Shown here one piece after another: positions 5,102 through 58,082 of a stretch of 64,000 nucleotides of DNA; within the stretch, counting starts at the first letter, position 1; each line of letters opens with the position of its first letter. This DNA is from Elusimicrobiota bacterium (GTDB lineage Bacteria; Elusimicrobiota; Elusimicrobia; UBA1565; UBA9628). Where the stretch lies: NCBI GenBank assembly GCA_016209035.1, contig JACQWX010000005.1, positions 6,688-70,687 of the forward strand, in the 5' to 3' direction. The translations under genes were made by a program, and so were the position numbers. The notes under the pieces were generated by a model. The model was not told the origin of the DNA, ran no database searches, and saw nothing but the letters and a program-made list of their open reading frames with translations.

Positions 5102-5907
5102 CGCTTGCCTCCTGCCTTGGCGGGCTTGGTCTCCTGCGAAGCCGGCTTGGCCGGCGCTTCCGCCTTGAACACCGCCTCGAACGCCGAGTAGGGGTTCTCG
5201 CGCGGAAGCTGCAGGGTCTTGTCGTTGAGTTCGTCCACGCGCGAGCCCCAGGTGCCAAGCGGCCCGCCCTGGAAGGTGACGAAGTAGGCGGTCCCGCTGC
5301 CCAAGGGCTTCTTGAAGCAGTAGCCGATCATGTCCGCCTGGGCCGCGATGAACGCGCCCGCCTTGCCCGGCATGTTGATGCCGGCCGGGGACACGAGGTT
5401 GCCGCCCGAGTCGAGCTTGGGCTCCTTGCAGTGGGCGATCAAGATGACGAGCTTCCGAGATGCCTTGAGGTAGGCTACCAGGGCCTCGATGCGCTTTCTG
5501 TACTCGCCCCAGAGTTCGAAGCCGTCCACGCCCTGCTTGCGCTCCGTGATGGAGTCCAGGCCCCTGGCCCGGGCGATCTCGTCCTCGAGCCAGTCCGAGA
5601 GCACGTCCAGGCTGTCGATGACCACGGTCTTGATCGCAGGCTCGCGCATCACAGCCTTGAGCGTCTCGCGGAACTCAGCGACGTTTGCGATGTCGTGGAT
5701 GCGGCCGGCCACGCGGTCGCCGCCGCCGAGTTCGCACTCCAGCACGTAGGCGCCTTCGAACGACGCCCCGAACGTCGTCTTGCCGGACTTCGGCTGGCCG
5801 ACCAGGATGGCGAGGCCCTCCGTCGGGAGCCCCGTCTTCCTCCTCGGCCGCGGCGCAACGAGCTGCACGCCGGCCGGCTGCTGGGACTGCTGGTTTTCTT
5901 GGGTCAT
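5098..5907 (-). CDS. Sak4-like RecA-fold ATPase (AAA_24 family), phage recombination
   Basis: Walker [20 protein letters not shown]; Walker B-like [10 protein letters not shown]; size 269 aa; sits between DUF669 and an exonuclease. Confidence 0.65.
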
Positions 5908-5942: not shown

Positions 5943-6716
5943 TCACCATTCGATGAACTGCGGCTGCTCCAGGGACTCTTTGAGCGCCTTGGCGGCGAGG
6001 AAAGCCTCGAAGGACCGGTTGAGGTCCGCGATCTCCTTGCGCTCGAAGTCTACGGGCAGCTTCTTGCCGAAGCGGACGATCACGGCCTCGTCGCAGGCGA
6101 TGCCGTAGGTCTCCTTGAAAGCCTGCGCGTAGGCCGCGACCTGCAGGGCATACTCGGCGTAGATGCCGTTCGAGGTCTTCCAGTCCAGGATGACGAGCTT
6201 CCCGTTGCGCCGGCCGAGCGCGTCCAGGCTGCCGCCGAACTTATGCTCGCGCGATGCGACCTTGGTATCCCCGAGCAGGAGCTCGATCTTCGTGGACTTC
6301 CACCAGTCTCTGAAGGCGCGGACCGGGGCCTCGATCTCGGGCGGGACCTTCCCCGGCTCCTCGCCCCGGATGATGCGGTCTATGAAGGCATGGGCCTGGG
6401 AGCCCAGGTCCGCGGCCTCGGTCTTGAGCTTGTCGGGCCGCTTCTTGGCCTCAATAAGGACCGACGAGATCCAGGCCTTGTTGAGCACGATCCTGGCGGA
6501 CCTGCGGCCGTCCAGGCGGGTCATGAGCGCGGCCTCGACCAAAGACAGAGCCTCGCGCTTGGCCCAGGGGACCAGGGCGGGCTTGTTGATGACCGAGAGC
6601 ATGCCGGTCACGCCCGGGTAGCGGTCTTGGCCGCCATTCCAGGCCACGTCGTAGAGGTGGCTGTTGCCCTCAACCACCAAGTCCACCTTGTAGAGCGGCT
6701 GAAGGCCTTCGGCCAT
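5943..6716 (-). CDS. PD-(D/E)xK phage-type exonuclease (RecB-nuclease/Cas4-like fold, no 4-Cys cluster)
   Basis: Motifs ILDWKTS and YALQVAAYAQAF (D...EXK plus QxxxY); probable start MAEGLQ. Confidence 0.6.
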   Translation of the reverse strand: MAEGLQPLYKVDLVVEGNSHLYDVAWNGGQDRYPGVTGMLSVINKPALVPWAKREALSLVEAALMTRLDGRRSARIVLNKAWISSVLIEAKKRPDKLKTEAADLGSQAHAFIDRIIRGEEPGKVPPEIEAPVRAFRDWWKSTKIELLLGDTKVASREHKFGGSLDALGRRNGKLVILDWKTSNGIYAEYALQVAAYAQAFKETYGIACDEAVIVRFGKKLPVDFERKEIADLNRSFEAFLAAKALKESLEQPQFIEW

Positions 6717-6717
6717 G

Positions 6718-7017
6718 CTATCCTCCCTTCCCATTCCGGAGCCTCTGGACCCGGAAGCCGAACTCGCCCACCTGCTTGATGAGGAACCCGGCCAGGAGTT
6801 TGGCCAGGTGCTCGCCGCACTCTGTCCCGCCCTCGATCACGCACACGGGCTTGGCCGCGGAGACGTCGTAGCCCGCCTCGAGCTTGAGCCGCGCCTTGCC
6901 GAAGATGATCTCTGTTTCCTTGACGGCCAGGGCGAGCACGGCCTTGAGAAGCCCGGGCTTTGAGCCCGGCCGGGTGAGGCTGAAGCGGTACGAGGTGCCT
7001 GCGGATGCCTGTTCCAT
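6718..7017 (-). CDS. hypothetical protein
   Basis: Protein-like composition from MEQASAGTSYRFSLTRPGSKPGLLKAV...; the overlapping 6608-7054 ORF is R-rich junk. Confidence 0.35.
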   Translation of the reverse strand: MEQASAGTSYRFSLTRPGSKPGLLKAVLALAVKETEIIFGKARLKLEAGYDVSAAKPVCVIEGGTECGEHLAKLLAGFLIKQVGEFGFRVQRLRNGKGG

Positions 7018-11159: not shown

Positions 11160-12985
11160 GCACGAACAACGAGTCCGGGAACGGGAACGGCAAGGCGGGG
11201 CCGGTCTGGATCGCGGTCTACACGCGCAAGTCGAACGACGAGAACCTCAATATCGAGGTGACGTCCATCGACAACCAGAAGGCCTGCTGCCGCAGCTACA
11301 TCGAAATCCAGAAGCAGAAGGGCTGGCGGGAGTACCCCGAGACCTTCGACGACCCGGCCCAGTCGGGCAAGAGCCTGGAGCGGCCGGCCATGAAGCGCAT
11401 CCTGCAGCGCATCCAGGAGGGCAAGGTCCAGGGCGTCATCGTCTACAAGCTCGACCGCCTGACGCGCAACTCAAGGGATTTCCACGGCCTGCTGGAGCTC
11501 TTCGAGAAGCACGGCGTGGCCTTCATCTCGGCCACGGAGTCCATTGACACGAAGAGCCCGCAGGGCAGGCTCATGACCGCCATCATGGTCCAGTTCGCCC
11601 AGTACGACCGCGAGCTGGACCAGGAGAGGTCCAGGGATACGCACCTCGCCCGGGCGCGCAAAGGGCTTTGGTGCGCGGGCCTGCCTCCCCTGGGGTACGA
11701 CATCAAGGACAAGCTCCTGGTGGTCAACCCGCAGGAGGCGGAGCTTGTGCGCGAGATTTTCGGGCTCTACCTCAGGCACAAGTCCACCTTGGTCGTGGCC
11801 AAGGAGCTCAACCGCCTGAATTACCGGCGCAAGACCTACAAGGCGCAGGACGGGAGACTCTTGGGCGGCAAGCCATTCGACCCGGACACGGTCTGCGGGA
11901 TTCTGCGGCGCAAGGTCTACATCGGGATCATCACGAACGGGAGAAGCGGCCAGGAGTTCCCGGGCCTGCACACGCCCCTGGTGAGCCCCCGGGTGTTCGA
12001 GAAGGTCCAGGCCATCCTGGCCGGCCACCGCCTGCGCGAGGAGGCGACGCAGTACGCCAACAACAAGCACGGCTTCCTGCTCAAGGGCCTGGTCCGCTGC
12101 GGCGAGTGCGACGCGGCCATGGTCGGGTTCGTGCAGCCGAAGAAGGACAGGCGCTATCGCTACTACCGCTGCATCGGCAGGGACAATGGCCGGCGCTCCT
12201 TCTGCCCGGTCAAGTGCATCGGGGCGGACAAGATCGAGGAATTCGTGATAGAGAAGCTGGCAGTCATCGGCAGCGACCGCCCGTTCCTGGAGAGGGTGGT
12301 CGCCAAGGTCTCGAAGGAGTCCAAGAGCAAGATCCGGCCCATGAAGCGGGAGATACGGCGAATCGAGGAGCGGATTCGCGCGACCCGGCGGGAGACGCAG
12401 AACCTGCTGAACATGGTCAAGTCCGGCGGGTCTTCCCAGGAGGCCTCGGCTGAGATCAAGCGGTTGGAGGACGCCAAGCGGGAGTTGGAGGCCCGCTCGG
12501 CCGGGCTACAGGCGCAGGTCAGCCAGCGCCAGAGGGTGGTCTACGACGTGGACGCCATCGAGGGCGCGCTGCGCCGCTTCGCCAGGTTCATCTACCGGAT
12601 GCCGCGGGCCTTGCAGGTGCTGGTGTTCCGCATCCTGGTCAAACGGGTCGTTCTGCACCGGAACAAGATATCGGTGGAAATCCACGAGCTGCCTATAGGC
12701 GCTCTGGAGATGGTCATGGACAAGAGGCTCTTGGAGGCCCCCAGGGGCCTGGGCCACTGGAAGAACAACGGGGCGAACACGGGCCAGGAGGATGCTGCGG
12801 CGGCGGGTGTCGCGGGCAACGGCGGGCCGGCTGCGGGGGAACAGGCAGGGGCGGGGGACCGGGACGCGGCGGATTCGCCCATAAAAGGGCCAGTCCTCCG
12901 CCAACTCGCCACCGGAACACCGGTTTGTGAATTGGGGGAGGACTGGCGGGGTCAACGGGATTTGAACCCGCGGTCTCTGCCTTGA
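11156..12985 (+). CDS. large serine recombinase (integrase)
   Basis: N-terminus VWIAVYTRKSNDENLNIEVTSIDNQK...YKLDRLTRNSRDF (resolvase catalytic domain); recombinase domain; zinc ribbon CGECDAAM...YYRC; coiled coil. The low-complexity tail overlaps tRNA-Asp. Confidence 0.85.
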   Translation: MSTNNESGNGNGKAGPVWIAVYTRKSNDENLNIEVTSIDNQKACCRSYIEIQKQKGWREYPETFDDPAQSGKSLERPAMKRILQRIQEGKVQGVIVYKLDRLTRNSRDFHGLLELFEKHGVAFISATESIDTKSPQGRLMTAIMVQFAQYDRELDQERSRDTHLARARKGLWCAGLPPLGYDIKDKLLVVNPQEAELVREIFGLYLRHKSTLVVAKELNRLNYRRKTYKAQDGRLLGGKPFDPDTVCGILRRKVYIGIITNGRSGQEFPGLHTPLVSPRVFEKVQAILAGHRLREEATQYANNKHGFLLKGLVRCGECDAAMVGFVQPKKDRRYRYYRCIGRDNGRRSFCPVKCIGADKIEEFVIEKLAVIGSDRPFLERVVAKVSKESKSKIRPMKREIRRIEERIRATRRETQNLLNMVKSGGSSQEASAEIKRLEDAKRELEARSAGLQAQVSQRQRVVYDVDAIEGALRRFARFIYRMPRALQVLVFRILVKRVVLHRNKISVEIHELPIGALEMVMDKRLLEAPRGLGHWKNNGANTGQEDAAAAGVAGNGGPAAGEQAGAGDRDAADSPIKGPVLRQLATGTPVCELGEDWRGQRDLNPRSLP

Positions 12986-13022
12986 CAGGGCAGCGTGTTA
13001 GACCAGGCTACACCATGACCCC
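12944..13022 (-). tRNA. tRNA-Asp (anticodon GUC)
   Basis: Reverse complement is GGGGTCATGGTGTAGCCTGGTCTAACACGCTGCCCTGTCAAGGCAGAGACCGCGGGTTCAAATCCCGTTGACCCCGCCA. Cloverleaf checked by hand: 7-bp acceptor, anticodon loop CU-GUC-AA, T-loop TTCAAAT, encoded CCA. Confidence 0.85.
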
Positions 13023-18218: not shown

Positions 18219-18292
18219 TGGTGGGCCGTGCAGGATTCGAACCTGCGACCCTTCGCGTGTAAGGCGAATGCTCTACCGCTGAGCTAACGGCC
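18219..18292 (-). tRNA. tRNA-Val (anticodon UAC)
   Basis: Reverse complement is GGGCCGTTAGCTCAGCGGTAGAGCATTCGCCTTACACGCGAAGGGTCGCAGGTTCGAATCCTGCACGGCCCACCA; anticodon loop CU-UAC-AC. Confidence 0.85.
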
Positions 18293-18385
18293 CGATTCGC
18301 TCTCATTCTACAACACTTACCATGAGTTGGGGGCGGTCGGCGGGAGGGGCAATGACATCTGTACACTTTTCTGTTACTTTGGGCT

Positions 18386-31177: not shown

Positions 31178-31344
31178 TAATGCAGCAACATCCCGAACGC
31201 GCGAGGCGCCGTTTGCGGGCCTTGGGGTTGGGTCCGCGGCCGCGGCGTCATGCGTAGCGCGCTAGGGCGATAAAGGCAAACCCGCTGCAAGGCGGGGGCG
31301 CAAAGCCAGACTCCCTTCGGGGAGGGTCAGGTTGCCGAACAAAA

Positions 31345-39757: not shown

Positions 39758-39863
39758 GGTGTCAGGCATCAAGTTATCAAGTTGTTGGCCTTGTTCCGGA
39801 GGCTGACATCCGCGCCCATAACTTGATAGACTTGAAGAACTTGATAACTTGATGCCTGACACC
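39758..39863. repeat. 26-bp perfect inverted repeat flanking a 54-nt loop; tandem 8-mer iterons ATCAAGTT/AACTTGAT (6 copies); AT-rich
   Basis: Left arm ggtgtcaggcATCAAGTTATCAAGTT (39758-39783). Right arm AACTTGATAACTTGATgcctgacacc (39838-39863). The loop holds AACTTGATagACTTGAag. Confidence 0.7.
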
Positions 39864-40331: not shown

Positions 40332-41392
40332 TGGGGCGCAAGCTCCGCGTCGCGGTCCTGTTCGGCGGCCGATCCTCCGAGCACGAGGTGTCGCTGGCCT
40401 CGGCCAAGACCGTCATGGGCGGTCTCGACCCGGCGCGCTACGAGGTCAGGCCGATCCGCATCGACCGCGAGGGCCGGTGGCTGCTGGAGGACTCCGGCTC
40501 GAAGACCGCGGGGCTCTTGCCTTTCCGGGGCCTCGAGAGCCGCAGGGGCGACGGGTCTTCGCGGCGCTCTCTCCTGGCTGTGGACGTCGTTTTCCCGGTC
40601 CTTCACGGCCCCATGGGGGAGGACGGCACGGTGCAGGGCCTCCTCGAGGTCGCGAGGATCCCCTACGTGGGCTGCGGCGTGCTGGCCTCGGCGGTCGGGA
40701 TGGACAAGGACGTCGCCAAGAGGCTGGCCCTGCAGGCGGGCGTCCCGGTCCTGCCGCACATCCTTTTGCGCTCGCCCGGGGAACTGTCTGGCAAGAGGGC
40801 TCTTTTGCGGGGAATGAAGGTCCCGGTCTTCGTCAAGCCCGGGTGCCTGGGCTCCTCGGTGGGGGTGCGCAAGGTCAAAGATTTCTCCGAGCTCGGCGCC
40901 GCGGTCCGCTACGCCTTCCGCTTCGACACCAAGGTCATCGTGGAGCAGGGCGTCGACGGCCAGGAGATCTGCTGCGCGGTCCTGGGCAAGCCCGGGGACC
41001 TGGAGACCTCGGTCTGCGGCGAGGTCGTGGTCACCGGCGGTCACGAGTTCTTCGACTACTCCGCCAAGTACACGGACAAGGCGGGCCACGAACTGCTCAT
41101 CCCGGCGAGGCTCGCGCACGAGGAATCCCGCTTCATCCGCGGCCTCTCCGAGCGCGTCTTCGAGGCGTTCGACGGCAACGGCATGGCCCGGGTGGATTTT
41201 TTCATGGACCGCCGCTCGCGGCGGGCCTTCTTCGGCGAGATCAATACGATCCCGGGCTTCACGGACCAGAGCCTCTACCCCGCGCTCTTCCAGGAGTCCG
41301 GGCTCACCATCCCGAAGATCCTCGACCGCCTGATCGCGCTCGCCCTCGAGCGCAGCCGCCGGCGAGGGGCCTTGAGAACCTCGCGGCGCTAA
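40331..41392 (+). CDS. ddl: D-alanine--D-alanine ligase
   Basis: VAVLFGGRSSEHEVSLASA...VFPVLHGPMGEDGTVQGLLE...; ATP-grasp pattern; GTG start overlapping the upstream stop. Confidence 0.85.
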   Translation: MGRKLRVAVLFGGRSSEHEVSLASAKTVMGGLDPARYEVRPIRIDREGRWLLEDSGSKTAGLLPFRGLESRRGDGSSRRSLLAVDVVFPVLHGPMGEDGTVQGLLEVARIPYVGCGVLASAVGMDKDVAKRLALQAGVPVLPHILLRSPGELSGKRALLRGMKVPVFVKPGCLGSSVGVRKVKDFSELGAAVRYAFRFDTKVIVEQGVDGQEICCAVLGKPGDLETSVCGEVVVTGGHEFFDYSAKYTDKAGHELLIPARLAHEESRFIRGLSERVFEAFDGNGMARVDFFMDRRSRRAFFGEINTIPGFTDQSLYPALFQESGLTIPKILDRLIALALERSRRRGALRTSRR

Positions 41393-41651
41393 GGGCTCGT
41401 TAAGAATTAAGTGACACACTTCGCCGAGGGCGATTTTGGCGCGAGCCGAGGAGTGAGGAGCATAGCTGGCTATGTGAGCGACGAACGACGAAGGCGCAGC
41501 CCAAAAGCGCCCCGGGCCTTCGGGGAGACCCGCTGTCGGCCGATTTCGTCGTTGCTCCTCGGTCCCATGGCTCGCCATGCTCCCTCGTCGCGCCTAGAAA
41601 TCGTCTCGACATCGGGTCTCCGAAGTGTGTCACTTAATTCTTAACGAGCCC
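41393..41651. repeat. ~260-bp nested-palindromic MITE-like repeat element, copy 1, with 31-bp perfect terminal inverted repeats
   Basis: TIRs gggctcgttaagaattaagtgacacacttcg (41393-41423) and its exact reverse complement (41621-41651). Fills the ddl/TPR-gene intergenic gap. Core is homologous to 57045-57244. Confidence 0.65.
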
Positions 41652-41657
41652 TAAGGT

Positions 41658-42965
41658 TCAGCGCTTCCTTCTAATCAGCAGGCGGACGGTGTCCGCGCCG
41701 ACATCCTCCACCTTGGCGTCCCACTGGCCGTCGATAGGGAACTCAAGGCCGGCGGCGTAGACGCCCTTGCGGACCAGGGTCCCGTCGGGGTCGAAGCGGA
41801 CCTGGACCGGCGGGATCCTCCTGAGCTCGATGGAAACCAGGCCGGGCCCCGAGGGCTGCGCGATGAACCGGTAGTTCGGCGTGGTGAAGAGGGCCCAGAG
41901 GAGCTTCCTGCCGCCGAGGCGGATGGTGAACGGGAAGTTGTCCGGGTCGGCCAGGGTCTCCATGGGCAGGGGCTCGAGGTGCTTGGAAGAGGTCCACTTG
42001 ATCGCTATCTTGGAGTAGGCGCCCCTGACGGAGGTCGTAGACGGGCCGACCTGCCAGCCCGATGCCGTCTTCGAGGAGGTGGCCATGAGCATGGTCCGTC
42101 CGACGGGCTCGCGCTCGAGGAACGGGACGAGGGGGGAGAGGATGAGGCCCACGGTCTTGAGAGGCGCCAGGTAGAGCTTGCCCACCTTCTCCAAGTTGCG
42201 CTCCCAGTTCCTCCTGCCCTCCTTGTCGCTCAGGATGAGGAGGACGTCCTCGGCCTCCTGGAGCTCGGGCTTGAGGTCCAGGGCCTGCTTGCGGAGGGTC
42301 TCGACCTCGTCGGCGGGCAGGCCTTTGGCCGCGAGCGCCAGGGCCAGGAGGCGCCTAGCCTCGGCGTAGTCGGGGTCGATCCCCAGGGCCTTCCTGAGGG
42401 ATGCGACCGCGTCATCGAAGCGCCCCTGGTCGTAGCGGACGGCGCCGATCTCGAAGTGCGCCTCCGCGTAGGCGGCGCTCAAGTCCGCGGCCGTCTGGAA
42501 CTGCCTGAGGGCGGCGTCGGTCCGGCCGGCGTGCAGGAGCATGAGCCCGTAGTTGAGATGGATGTGGGGGTCGCTCTTCCTGCTCTTGGCCGCGGCCCTG
42601 CGCAAGGCCGCCAGCTCCGCGGGGTCTCCCGGGGGAGTGAGGGTCCGCAGGTAGTACCAGGTCTGGGGGAAGGACCGGTCGAGCTTGGCGGAAAGATTCA
42701 ACTCGGCCAAGGCCTGCCGCGTCTCGCCTGCGTGGGCCAGGCACAGGCCCAGCGCGTAGCGCAGGAGCGCGTGGTTCGGCGTCTTCTTCAGCTCGGCCCT
42801 GAGGGGCTCGATGGCGCGTTCGAGCTGGTCCTCCTTGAGGAGGTTCCACGCGACGTCCACGGCGGACGGCTGGGCCTGGGCCTGCGGCCCAGGCCCAGGG
42901 GCCGCAGGCCAGGCTGCCCAGGCGGAGGCCGACACGACCGAAATGACTAGGAAGGTTCTCTTCAT
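41658..42965 (-). CDS. secreted TPR-repeat protein
   Basis: Signal peptide MKRTFLVISVVSASAWA; TPR-like repeats. Confidence 0.65.
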   Translation of the reverse strand: MKRTFLVISVVSASAWAAWPAAPGPGPQAQAQPSAVDVAWNLLKEDQLERAIEPLRAELKKTPNHALLRYALGLCLAHAGETRQALAELNLSAKLDRSFPQTWYYLRTLTPPGDPAELAALRRAAAKSRKSDPHIHLNYGLMLLHAGRTDAALRQFQTAADLSAAYAEAHFEIGAVRYDQGRFDDAVASLRKALGIDPDYAEARRLLALALAAKGLPADEVETLRKQALDLKPELQEAEDVLLILSDKEGRRNWERNLEKVGKLYLAPLKTVGLILSPLVPFLEREPVGRTMLMATSSKTASGWQVGPSTTSVRGAYSKIAIKWTSSKHLEPLPMETLADPDNFPFTIRLGGRKLLWALFTTPNYRFIAQPSGPGLVSIELRRIPPVQVRFDPDGTLVRKGVYAAGLEFPIDGQWDAKVEDVGADTVRLLIRRKR

Positions 42966-56944: not shown

Positions 56945-57011
56945 GGGCGGGGGTCCCGGGCGGCGCGGCCTGCGGTCCTTGACAACGTAACAGCCATGGG
57001 GTAGCCTAGTA

Positions 57012-57277
57012 AGGGCCTGTCAAACAATAACATGGTTAATTTGGAGGGCCGAGCTTGAGATGATTTCGAGGCGCGAGGAGGGAACATGGCGGGCCATGTG
57101 ACCGACGAGCAACGAAGAAATCGGCCAAGATCGGCCCTCCCCGAAGGGGCCGGGCGCTTTTGGGCTGCGCCTGCGTCGCTCGTCACTCGCATACGTTCAG
57201 TATTCTCGCTCCTCGCTCCTTGGCTCGCTCCAAAATCGCCTCGGCCAAATTGACCATGTTATTGTTTGACAGGCCCT
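57012..57277. repeat. MITE-like nested-palindromic repeat, copy 2, with 33-bp terminal inverted repeats (1 mismatch)
   Basis: agggcctgtcaaacaataacatggttaatttgg (57012-57044) against ccaaattgaccatgttattgtttgacaggccct (57245-57277). Core ~80% identical to the reverse complement of copy 1; ends 4 nt before the ATG of the next gene. Confidence 0.65.
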
Positions 57278-57281
57278 AAAC

Positions 57282-58082
57282 ATGGACCCGAGGCAGGTCG
57301 ACCCATCAGAGATCGAATCCATCAACAGCCTTGAGACCGCCAGGATCGCTTTGCGTTGGGCGTTGGAGCGCATCCGGCTCCTCGAACAAGGCGGGGCCCG
57401 CAAGGGGGGCGACTCCGTCGCCGCGGCCTACTACCGGCGGATGGATGCTCTGATCTCTGATTTCACCCATCGGAGGCTCGATGTGGGGAAGCTTCTTGAG
57501 AGAGAGGCGGAGGTCGAGGTCCTCGAGCAGCGGCTCCGCGCCCGCCGACTGGAGCTTGAACACGACGGGCTGGATAGGACCACGCGCCTGGAGGAGCAGT
57601 ATCAGCGCCTAAGGAGGGAGCTCGAGACCAGGCTGCGGAGGGAGACCGAGGCTCTCTGGAAGGATTTTTCGGCGGAGTATGATGCGTGGCGCGCGCGCGT
57701 GGCGGAGCAAGAGCGAACCTCCCGCGCGGCGGGCATGGCCCTGGAGGCCCAGAAGAAGGCCTGGATCGAAGAGGCCGTGAAGTTCGACCAGGCAGCGCAG
57801 ACGGAGCGCGGCCGCAGCATGGAGTCCTTGGCCCAGTTTCGCCATGCCACGGAGGACCTGCTGGCCCGACGCCTCGGTGACCTCGAGGCCGAGATGAAGC
57901 GGCGCGAGGAGGCGTGGAGGGCCGAGGAAGAGCGGTTGCGGTCCAGGGACCGGGAGTGGCATGACCGCCAGTCCCGGCTCGAGCACGACTATCTGAGCAA
58001 GTCCGCGGAGCTCGAGGATCTCAAGGCTGAGATGCTCCGGGCCATGCGGGGCAAAGGCAAGGAAGAGCACCCTCCGCCCTGA
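57282..58082 (+). CDS. coiled-coil protein
   Basis: 266 aa, R/E/L-rich heptads. Confidence 0.55.
   Translation: MDPRQVDPSEIESINSLETARIALRWALERIRLLEQGGARKGGDSVAAAYYRRMDALISDFTHRRLDVGKLLEREAEVEVLEQRLRARRLELEHDGLDRTTRLEEQYQRLRRELETRLRRETEALWKDFSAEYDAWRARVAEQERTSRAAGMALEAQKKAWIEEAVKFDQAAQTERGRSMESLAQFRHATEDLLARRLGDLEAEMKRREEAWRAEEERLRSRDREWHDRQSRLEHDYLSKSAELEDLKAEMLRAMRGKGKEEHPPP

Follow-up and report, generated by a model that had tools for sequence, protein, structure and literature searches.

How did a 259-bp, non-coding and strongly folding palindrome come to fill exactly the gap between two convergent genes, ddl and a gene coding for a 435-aa TPR protein, in a GC-rich genome of the Elusimicrobia? 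The sequence in question, hereafter E1, spans positions 41393-41651 of the window, i.e. the whole 64-kb stretch of DNA that was analysed. It is bounded by terminal inverted repeats (TIRs), a left arm of the type that we call class A (GGGCTCGTTAAGAATTAAGTGACACACTTCG, 41393-41423, + strand) and a right arm (41621-41651, - strand) that is its exact reverse complement, so that the perfect 31-bp TIRs described in an earlier note on this DNA are confirmed at 31/31 positions. If one mismatch is allowed, the palindrome grows to 41389-41655. The arm 31-mer occurs twice in the window, as the two arms of E1 themselves, and in none of 100 shuffled versions; neither an exact nor a 3-mismatch search found the arm elsewhere in the window. 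The same note had contrasted AT-rich termini with a GC-rich genome and, indeed, GC content amounts to 45% in the arms and 59% in E1 as a whole as against 67% in the window. The predicted fold reaches about -150 kcal/mol on either strand (z about -11 relative to dinucleotide shuffles).

The position of the element is equally precise and agrees with that first description. The ddl open reading frame ends in a TAA at 41390-41392 (+ strand) and E1 begins at the very next nucleotide, while on the other side its end is separated by 6 nt from the stop codon of the convergent TPR gene (TCA on the + strand, 41658-41660). These 6 nt consist of a second TAA (41652-41654, + strand) and of the spacer GGT, the original 3-nt gap of the reconstruction given below. 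E1 thus lies between two direct copies of TAA, a 3-bp duplication whose left member is the ddl stop codon itself. Mirrored 77-aa open reading frames are present on both strands of E1, and the frame is not kept in other copies of the element, where it is interrupted by frameshifts and stops, so that these frames are artefacts of the palindrome, as had been supposed. The junction between the TPR gene and the arm was reproduced in an independent assembly, the Logan assembly of run SRR12113406, in the sole public contig that encodes exactly the TPR protein adjacent to E1. This contig breaks 29 nt into the arm, as is expected of a repeat or a palindrome in a k-mer assembler.

Our analyses very probably identify E1 as a MITE (miniature inverted-repeat transposable element), as the earlier note had proposed, that is, a non-coding, non-autonomous DNA transposon with ends of the ISAzo13 type that was inserted in the TAA stop codon of ddl. 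According to the mechanism that we propose, an ISAzo13-type DDE transposase, supplied in trans, would bind both arms and excise or copy the element, which would then be integrated at a T-W-A trinucleotide through a 3-nt staggered cut, the repair of which would duplicate the TWA. In genomes of 67-69% GC such sites would be expected to be scarce outside stop codons and intergenic DNA, and target choice together with selection would thus place the copies at gene ends. Small size, lack of coding capacity, TIRs, flanking direct repeats, a stable fold, filled and empty sites and TIRs shared with an insertion sequence (IS) have been used as working criteria for MITEs (PMC3184786). All but the last of these features were found for E1 in this lineage; ISs with matching ends came to light in other organisms only. 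Its 259 bp also lie below the size of about 600 bp under which MITEs fall.

A mobile repeat should occur in several places, and blastn and nhmmer searches with the E1 interior identified one further homologue in the window itself, so that two copies are found within 64 kb. This second copy, E2 (57013-57276), lies in the opposite orientation (- strand) and, together with its TAA duplication (57010-57012 and 57277-57279), occupies 57010-57279. The copy at 57 kb to which the earlier note referred is consequently real, although its arms belong to a different sequence class (class C, GGGCCTGTCAAACAATAACATGGTYAATTTGG): they are complementary to each other at 32 of 33 positions and only 55% identical to those of E1, while the interior is about 78-81% identical. 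Both copies share the layout TAA-GGGC...GCCC-TAA. The end of E2 is followed by the TAA, by two further nucleotides and by the ATG (57282) of the next gene; a search for its empty site yielded no close orthologue of the downstream protein. This gene, annotated as a 266-aa coiled-coil protein, thus has its ATG only 5 nt (TAAac) from the end of E2 (57277-57284), and the element now separates it by more than 260 bp from any upstream ribosome-binding site or promoter that it originally had. Either the E2 arm supplies start or translation signals or the annotated start is wrong.

Beyond the window, two complementary scans were performed. The occurrence of an 18-nt core motif of the interior was screened using one genome per species, yielding 76 loci, 20 of them from six GC-rich Elusimicrobia MAGs (eight matches in REEB4, six in GWA2_69_24, two in JACRDT01 and one in each of three others). 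According to nhmmer, the Elusimicrobia loci hold full or partial elements, and those of other phyla do not, with the exception of one partial module. Indeed, the approximately 55 matches in other phyla are at the level expected by chance for a GC-rich 18-mer, and were consequently discarded, similarity extending beyond the motif in a single case (L012). The latter, at 6705-6812 of a Candidatus Methylacidiphilales MAG contig (DASZIP010000001.1, Verrucomicrobiota), is a lone hairpin module, GGCGAGTCGATTTTGGGCTGCGCC...GGCGCAGCCCAAAAGCGCCGCC, homologous to the left domain and without TIRs. A scan of metagenome contigs for the arm pattern yielded 39 loci and disclosed at least 22 more copies in the IMG version (Ga0154315) of GWA2_69_24, bringing the total for this MAG to at least 25. 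Many of the metagenome contigs terminate exactly at an element arm. The copies of GWA2_69_24 come in discrete sizes of 162, 223, 268, 325 and 382 bp. Several copies of the family have one arm mismatch in common, which points to descent from one master copy. When the genes flanking E1 and E2 were compared by tblastn with the loci of the other copies, no locus was found in common, which rules out orthologous retention. We therefore assign E1 and E2 to a newly recognised family within a familiar class of selfish DNA, with many copies at unrelated loci of related Elusimicrobia MAGs.

The duplication of a 3-bp target is the rule in this family. Among 13 full copies from the motif scan, identical TAA/TAA or TTA/TTA flanks were found in 10 of the 12 with both flanks readable, and the copies from the arm scan had perfect flanks of the same kind in 19 of 22 cases; both scans together gave such a duplication at 29 of 34 copies with readable flanks. 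A 2-bp TA duplication with A...T termini, as in IS630-like elements, was considered as well and ruled out by the identical 3-mers on both sides in these 29 of 34 copies; it fits only two IS copies described below (L103 and L122). As to the insertion context, a gene-finding heuristic based on GC3 placed none of 30 copies inside genes, and in about 13 of the 30 the duplicated TWA overlaps a flanking stop codon, as it does at ddl.

The ends of the element lead to the likely source of the transposase. The arm pattern was matched once in each of two soil contigs, L113 and L103, and in both a 408-aa open reading frame lies about 100 nt inward of the arm. It scores 582 bits on the NCBIfam model of the ISAzo13 family transposase (NF033519), for which the cut-off is 200, and 463 bits on Pfam PF07592. 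In L103 the IS is complete (28-1386, 1359 bp); its inverted repeats, 36 nt long, are 89% complementary, and its end, GGGCTCGTTAAGAAATAAGTG, agrees with that of E1, GGGCTCGTTAAGAATTAAGTG, at 20 of the 21 outer positions, as does the end in L113. A second complete IS (L084) codes for a 399-aa transposase, 56% identical to the former, and its end, GGGCTCGTAAAGAAATAAGTGAC, agrees over the outermost 21 nt with the arm type of L087, which is that of the 382-bp elements in GWA2_69_24. IS copies with transposases related to that of L084 were further found twice in one 3.2-Mb genome (L123 and L124) and once in a Gemmatimonadaceae MAG (L125), all of them flanked by TAA/TAA, and their ends, GGGCATGTCAGGAAATAAC and GGGCCTGTAAAGAAATAAC, those in L123 and L125, resemble the class C arms of E2 and of L002. 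ISAzo13 and its eukaryotic relative Zator are reported to make 3-bp duplications (PMC10045372; see also PMC5718144), and a 3-bp TAA/TTA duplication was found at four of the six IS copies (L113, L123, L124 and L125). In the remaining two, L103 and L122, a TAA flank is opposed to a TTA flank, so that the palindrome is lengthened and no clean duplication is left; we tentatively attribute these mixed flanks to recombination between inverted copies, though they could also be a feature of the integration chemistry.

E1 and the ISAzo13 ISs (PF07592, NF033519; Zator) thus have in common the terminal type GGGCyyGT.AA..AATAA.TG and the 3-bp duplication at TAA/TTA, the latter seen in the E1-family MITEs as in the IS copies. 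They differ in that E1 lacks a transposase gene and has nothing in common with the ISs between its arms, and in that its arms are perfectly complementary, whereas those of the ISs are 78-89% complementary. They differ also in their hosts: soil metagenome contigs are the source of the complete ISs whose ends match, and the ISs found belong to other or unknown taxa, whereas the host of E1 belongs to the Elusimicrobia. A tblastn search of the window and of about 200 kb of Elusimicrobia loci found no ISAzo13 transposase, and a fuzzy arm search found no widely spaced arm pairs in the Elusimicrobia loci, so that they contain no autonomous copy. Similarly, no sequence labelled Elusimicrobia was present among the top 120 homologues of the L084 transposase, the nearest named relatives of which are from Gemmatimonadota. 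Since no ISAzo13 transposase was found in Elusimicrobia sequence, we infer the one acting in the host from the ends and duplications of the elements.

The interior of E1 calls for a separate explanation. It had been described as one long imperfect hairpin; the strong fold stands, but across the family two tandem hairpin domains describe it better. RNAalifold, applied to 11 divergent copies, returned a 30-bp terminal stem closing two such domains of about 100 nt each. In E1 the left domain (41424-41516, + strand) has the apical stem-loop CATAGC..GCTATG and a conserved 3' side, GGCGCAGCCCAAAAGCGCCCCGG, its helices 1-3 being 94-100% paired with compensatory changes in the consensus. The right domain (41524-41620, + strand) is formed by the stem GGAGACCCG...CGGGTCTCC (repeat pair 41524-41538 and 41607-41621) and the apical stem-loop CATGGC..GCCATG, and in its helices 5-7, which are 96-100% paired, 10 pairs changed on both sides. 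The apical stem-loops vary in sequence with pairing kept (CATAGC/GCTATG, CATACC/GGTATG, CAGGCC/GGCCTG). Comparison of divergent copies shows an interior built of hairpin cassettes, two of them in E1, in which pairing is maintained. The bigger variants hold additional cassettes within a size span of 162-383 bp, and the copies of REEB4 are missing the left apical hairpin. One 162-bp element of GWA2_69_24 (L099, 6017-6178) is a perfect palindrome, its left half folded back around CAGGCC-TTAA-GGCCTG, which points to fold-back or template switching as a source of new variants.

Among the other explanations of the element, the one that survives best adds to the MITE reading and does not replace it. 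According to this, the MITE would also carry a selected structured module, serving either as RNA for the gene whose stop codon it adjoins (as a factor-dependent terminator, a site for RNase III or a stabiliser of the 3' end) or as single-stranded DNA for transposition; we consider it possible, albeit rather unlikely. Such a module would account for an interior that stays conserved when the arm class changes. Interiors are 78-82% identical where arms are only about 55% identical, and L002 and L050 have interiors 95% identical with arms 65% identical; an element that is nothing but parasitic would not usually keep its interior better than its arms from one subfamily to another, which may point to some constraint on the interior. 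Conversely, E2 and L107a have arms 87% identical and interiors 63% identical. These comparisons show arm class and interior type to be uncoupled, arms and interiors having been recombined among subfamilies. Accounting for the same interior in the company of different arms, the module reading also draws on its presence joined to yet another arm class in L063 and armless in the Verrucomicrobiota locus L012, and on the fact that some 13 of 30 copies coincide exactly with a stop codon.

The pairing itself provides further support for this addition. Over 65 interior pairs, standard pairing was found in 96.9% of the cells, as compared with 29-47% when the partners were slid. Pairs changed on both sides numbered 16, against 6.5 +/- 1.4 in shuffles (none of 500 reaching 16) and 0-4 when slid, in a comparison of related sequences for which the structure was derived from the tested alignment itself and in which templated mutation of a quasi-palindrome can mimic compensation without selection. 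Two of the pairs are wobbles, G-U (columns 74:92; 9 of 10 distinct copies) and U-G (columns 169:211; 10 of 10), and on the opposite strand they would become C-A or A-C mismatches. Against a strand-specific role, the arm mismatches yielded no consistent G:U signal, the G:T combinations lying on either strand without consistent polarity. The free gain and loss of cassettes, including the left apical hairpin absent from REEB4, also speaks against a selected module.

Neither did the searches for known signals favour the bidirectional terminator or structured RNA that the earlier note had entertained. No intrinsic terminator (stem plus U-tract) on either strand and no sigma-70-like promoter were found in 41200-41850, the arms of E1 ending in ...GAGCCC TAA without a T-run. 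Rfam 15 gave no match at the gathering threshold for E1 in the window, permissive settings producing only chance-level hits over it (E above 1), and the 382-bp variant obtained only matches far below threshold. A structural effect of E1 on the 3' ends of the convergent ddl and TPR mRNAs is possible. That the cassettes are no passive filler but a selected structural module, RNA or single-stranded DNA, passed between ISAzo13-type arm classes and found armless in another phylum, appears to us unlikely. If true, TWA targeting, by which it lands in stop codons, would make the module a portable 3'-end structure for GC-rich Elusimicrobia genes, which have almost no convergent intergenic space.

Much less survives of a quite different proposal, in which E1 would be a locus-specific, immobile structure, such as a cis-regulatory RNA or a terminator acting in both directions, that arose where it now stands between the two convergent genes. 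Its appeal lies in the very stable fold and in the exact filling of the convergent gap, and the evidence against it begins with the same junction in relatives. Long contigs carry orthologues that are 71%, 65% and 48% identical to the TPR protein, with the gene order kept (AsmA-like, TPR, convergent ddl, small protein), and E1 is missing from the ddl/TPR junction of these three syntenic relatives; a search of the syntenic contigs (L078-L082) with the element model gave no match. In one of them (L079), from a MAG that holds the element elsewhere, the ddl and TPR stop codons lie 3 nt apart, at the same position (TGA-cgg-TCA), and in another (L078) the gap measures 73 nt. Removal of E1 and of one TAA from the window leaves gcTAAggtTCAgcgcttcc, to be compared with gcTGAcggTCAgcgcttcc in L079, and at the junction ...gcggcgcTAAggtTCAgcgcttcc... 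as against ...ccccgcTGAcggTCAgcgcttcc... in L079. As the reconstructed gap has the same 3 nt, the site is empty in L079, and E1 is an insertion into the ddl stop codon that the 3-bp duplication remade, leaving both ddl and the TPR gene undamaged. On this reconstruction, E1 landed in the ddl TAA, at the former 3-nt gap of two convergent genes. Its exactness also argues against regarding the TAA flanks as a conserved target motif instead of a duplication. The earlier note had held that a unique element conserved at this locus in relatives would speak for a locus-specific structure, and we found the opposite. Together with homologues at dozens of unrelated loci with TWA duplications, ends that match an IS and the lack of a U-tract terminator, the empty junctions make an origin in place highly improbable.

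Other insertions were observed around this junction. In L081 the gap between ddl and the TPR gene is filled by a PIN toxin-antitoxin pair, and in L078 (about 5196-5275) by an AT-rich hairpin with perfect 31-nt arms, GGGTGTCACACCTCAACTTATGGAACTTGTTT-gaaa-..., unrelated to E1, so that the same junction was struck independently by two different small elements. The L078 hairpin resembles in pattern (GGTGTCA..C.TCAA.TTAT) a second AT-rich palindrome of the window, 106 bp long (39758-39863) and likewise unrelated to E1, with 29-nt arms, GGTGTCAGGCATCAAGTTATCAAGTTGTT and AAGAACTTGATAACTTGATGCCTGACACC, that are 97% complementary. It begins 1 nt past the TAA stop of an upstream 279-aa open reading frame and is closely followed by the GGAGG/ATG of the lipoprotein gene that precedes ddl; in L079 the corresponding gap is without it. 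This is probably another small mobile palindrome family.

An element of the REP/BIME kind (RAYT, Y1 transposases) or a palindrome-associated derivative of IS200/IS605, of which the intergenic, hairpin-rich cassette mosaic is reminiscent as it is of BIMEs and BOX elements, is hardly credible, given 31-bp arms and 3-bp duplications as the rule and arms that match the ends of the DDE-type ISAzo13. REP/BIME and IS200/IS605-derived elements are tied to Y1 (RAYT/TnpA) transposases, and we know of no long TIRs or target-site duplications in them. The BOX elements of pneumococcus and the BIMEs of enterobacteria are like the E1 family in their variable number of hairpin cassettes, seen here in the discrete sizes of the copies; to our knowledge they have neither long perfect TIRs matched to a DDE IS nor consistent target duplications.

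Returning to the MITE reading, closer parallels exist among MITE-class repeats. The Correia elements of Neisseria and RUP of pneumococcus possess TIRs, hairpin-forming transcripts and short A/T-rich target duplications, these being 2-bp TA duplications; they measure about 100-160 bp and have an IS630-type or unknown partner. Promoter, IHF and RNase III functions have been documented for Correia elements. Both are like E1 in being short intergenic repeats of the MITE class (PMC3184786). The nearest parallel in the chain of evidence is Nezha of Anabaena and Nostoc with its partner ISNpu3, likewise identified from small non-coding elements with TIRs, direct repeats, a stable fold and filled and empty sites, and from an IS sharing the TIRs that was found only in another species, as for E1 (PMC3184786). 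Nezha differs from E1 in its host phylum, its sequence and its length of about 130-170 bp. A full-text search, of incomplete coverage, found no literature on MITEs tied to ISAzo13 or on MITEs of Elusimicrobia.

The additions made by this family are useful, yet incremental to a well-understood class. For annotation, the 77-aa open reading frames are to be left out, whereas both ddl and the TPR gene count as intact. Furthermore, E1 explains the breaks at this place in short-read assemblies of groundwater Elusimicrobia. The family provides the little-studied ISAzo13 group with a clear TWA target and a 3-bp duplication, and it constitutes a case both of stop-codon 'safe-harbour' insertion in a high-GC genome and of the reshuffling of arms and interiors with gain and loss of cassettes.

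Structured RNAs were recognised elsewhere in the window. A c-di-GMP-I riboswitch aptamer is located at 31265-31339 on the + strand (Rfam RF01051, 55.6 bits against a gathering score of 35), and two tRNA genes lie on the - strand at 12947-13022 and 18222-18293.
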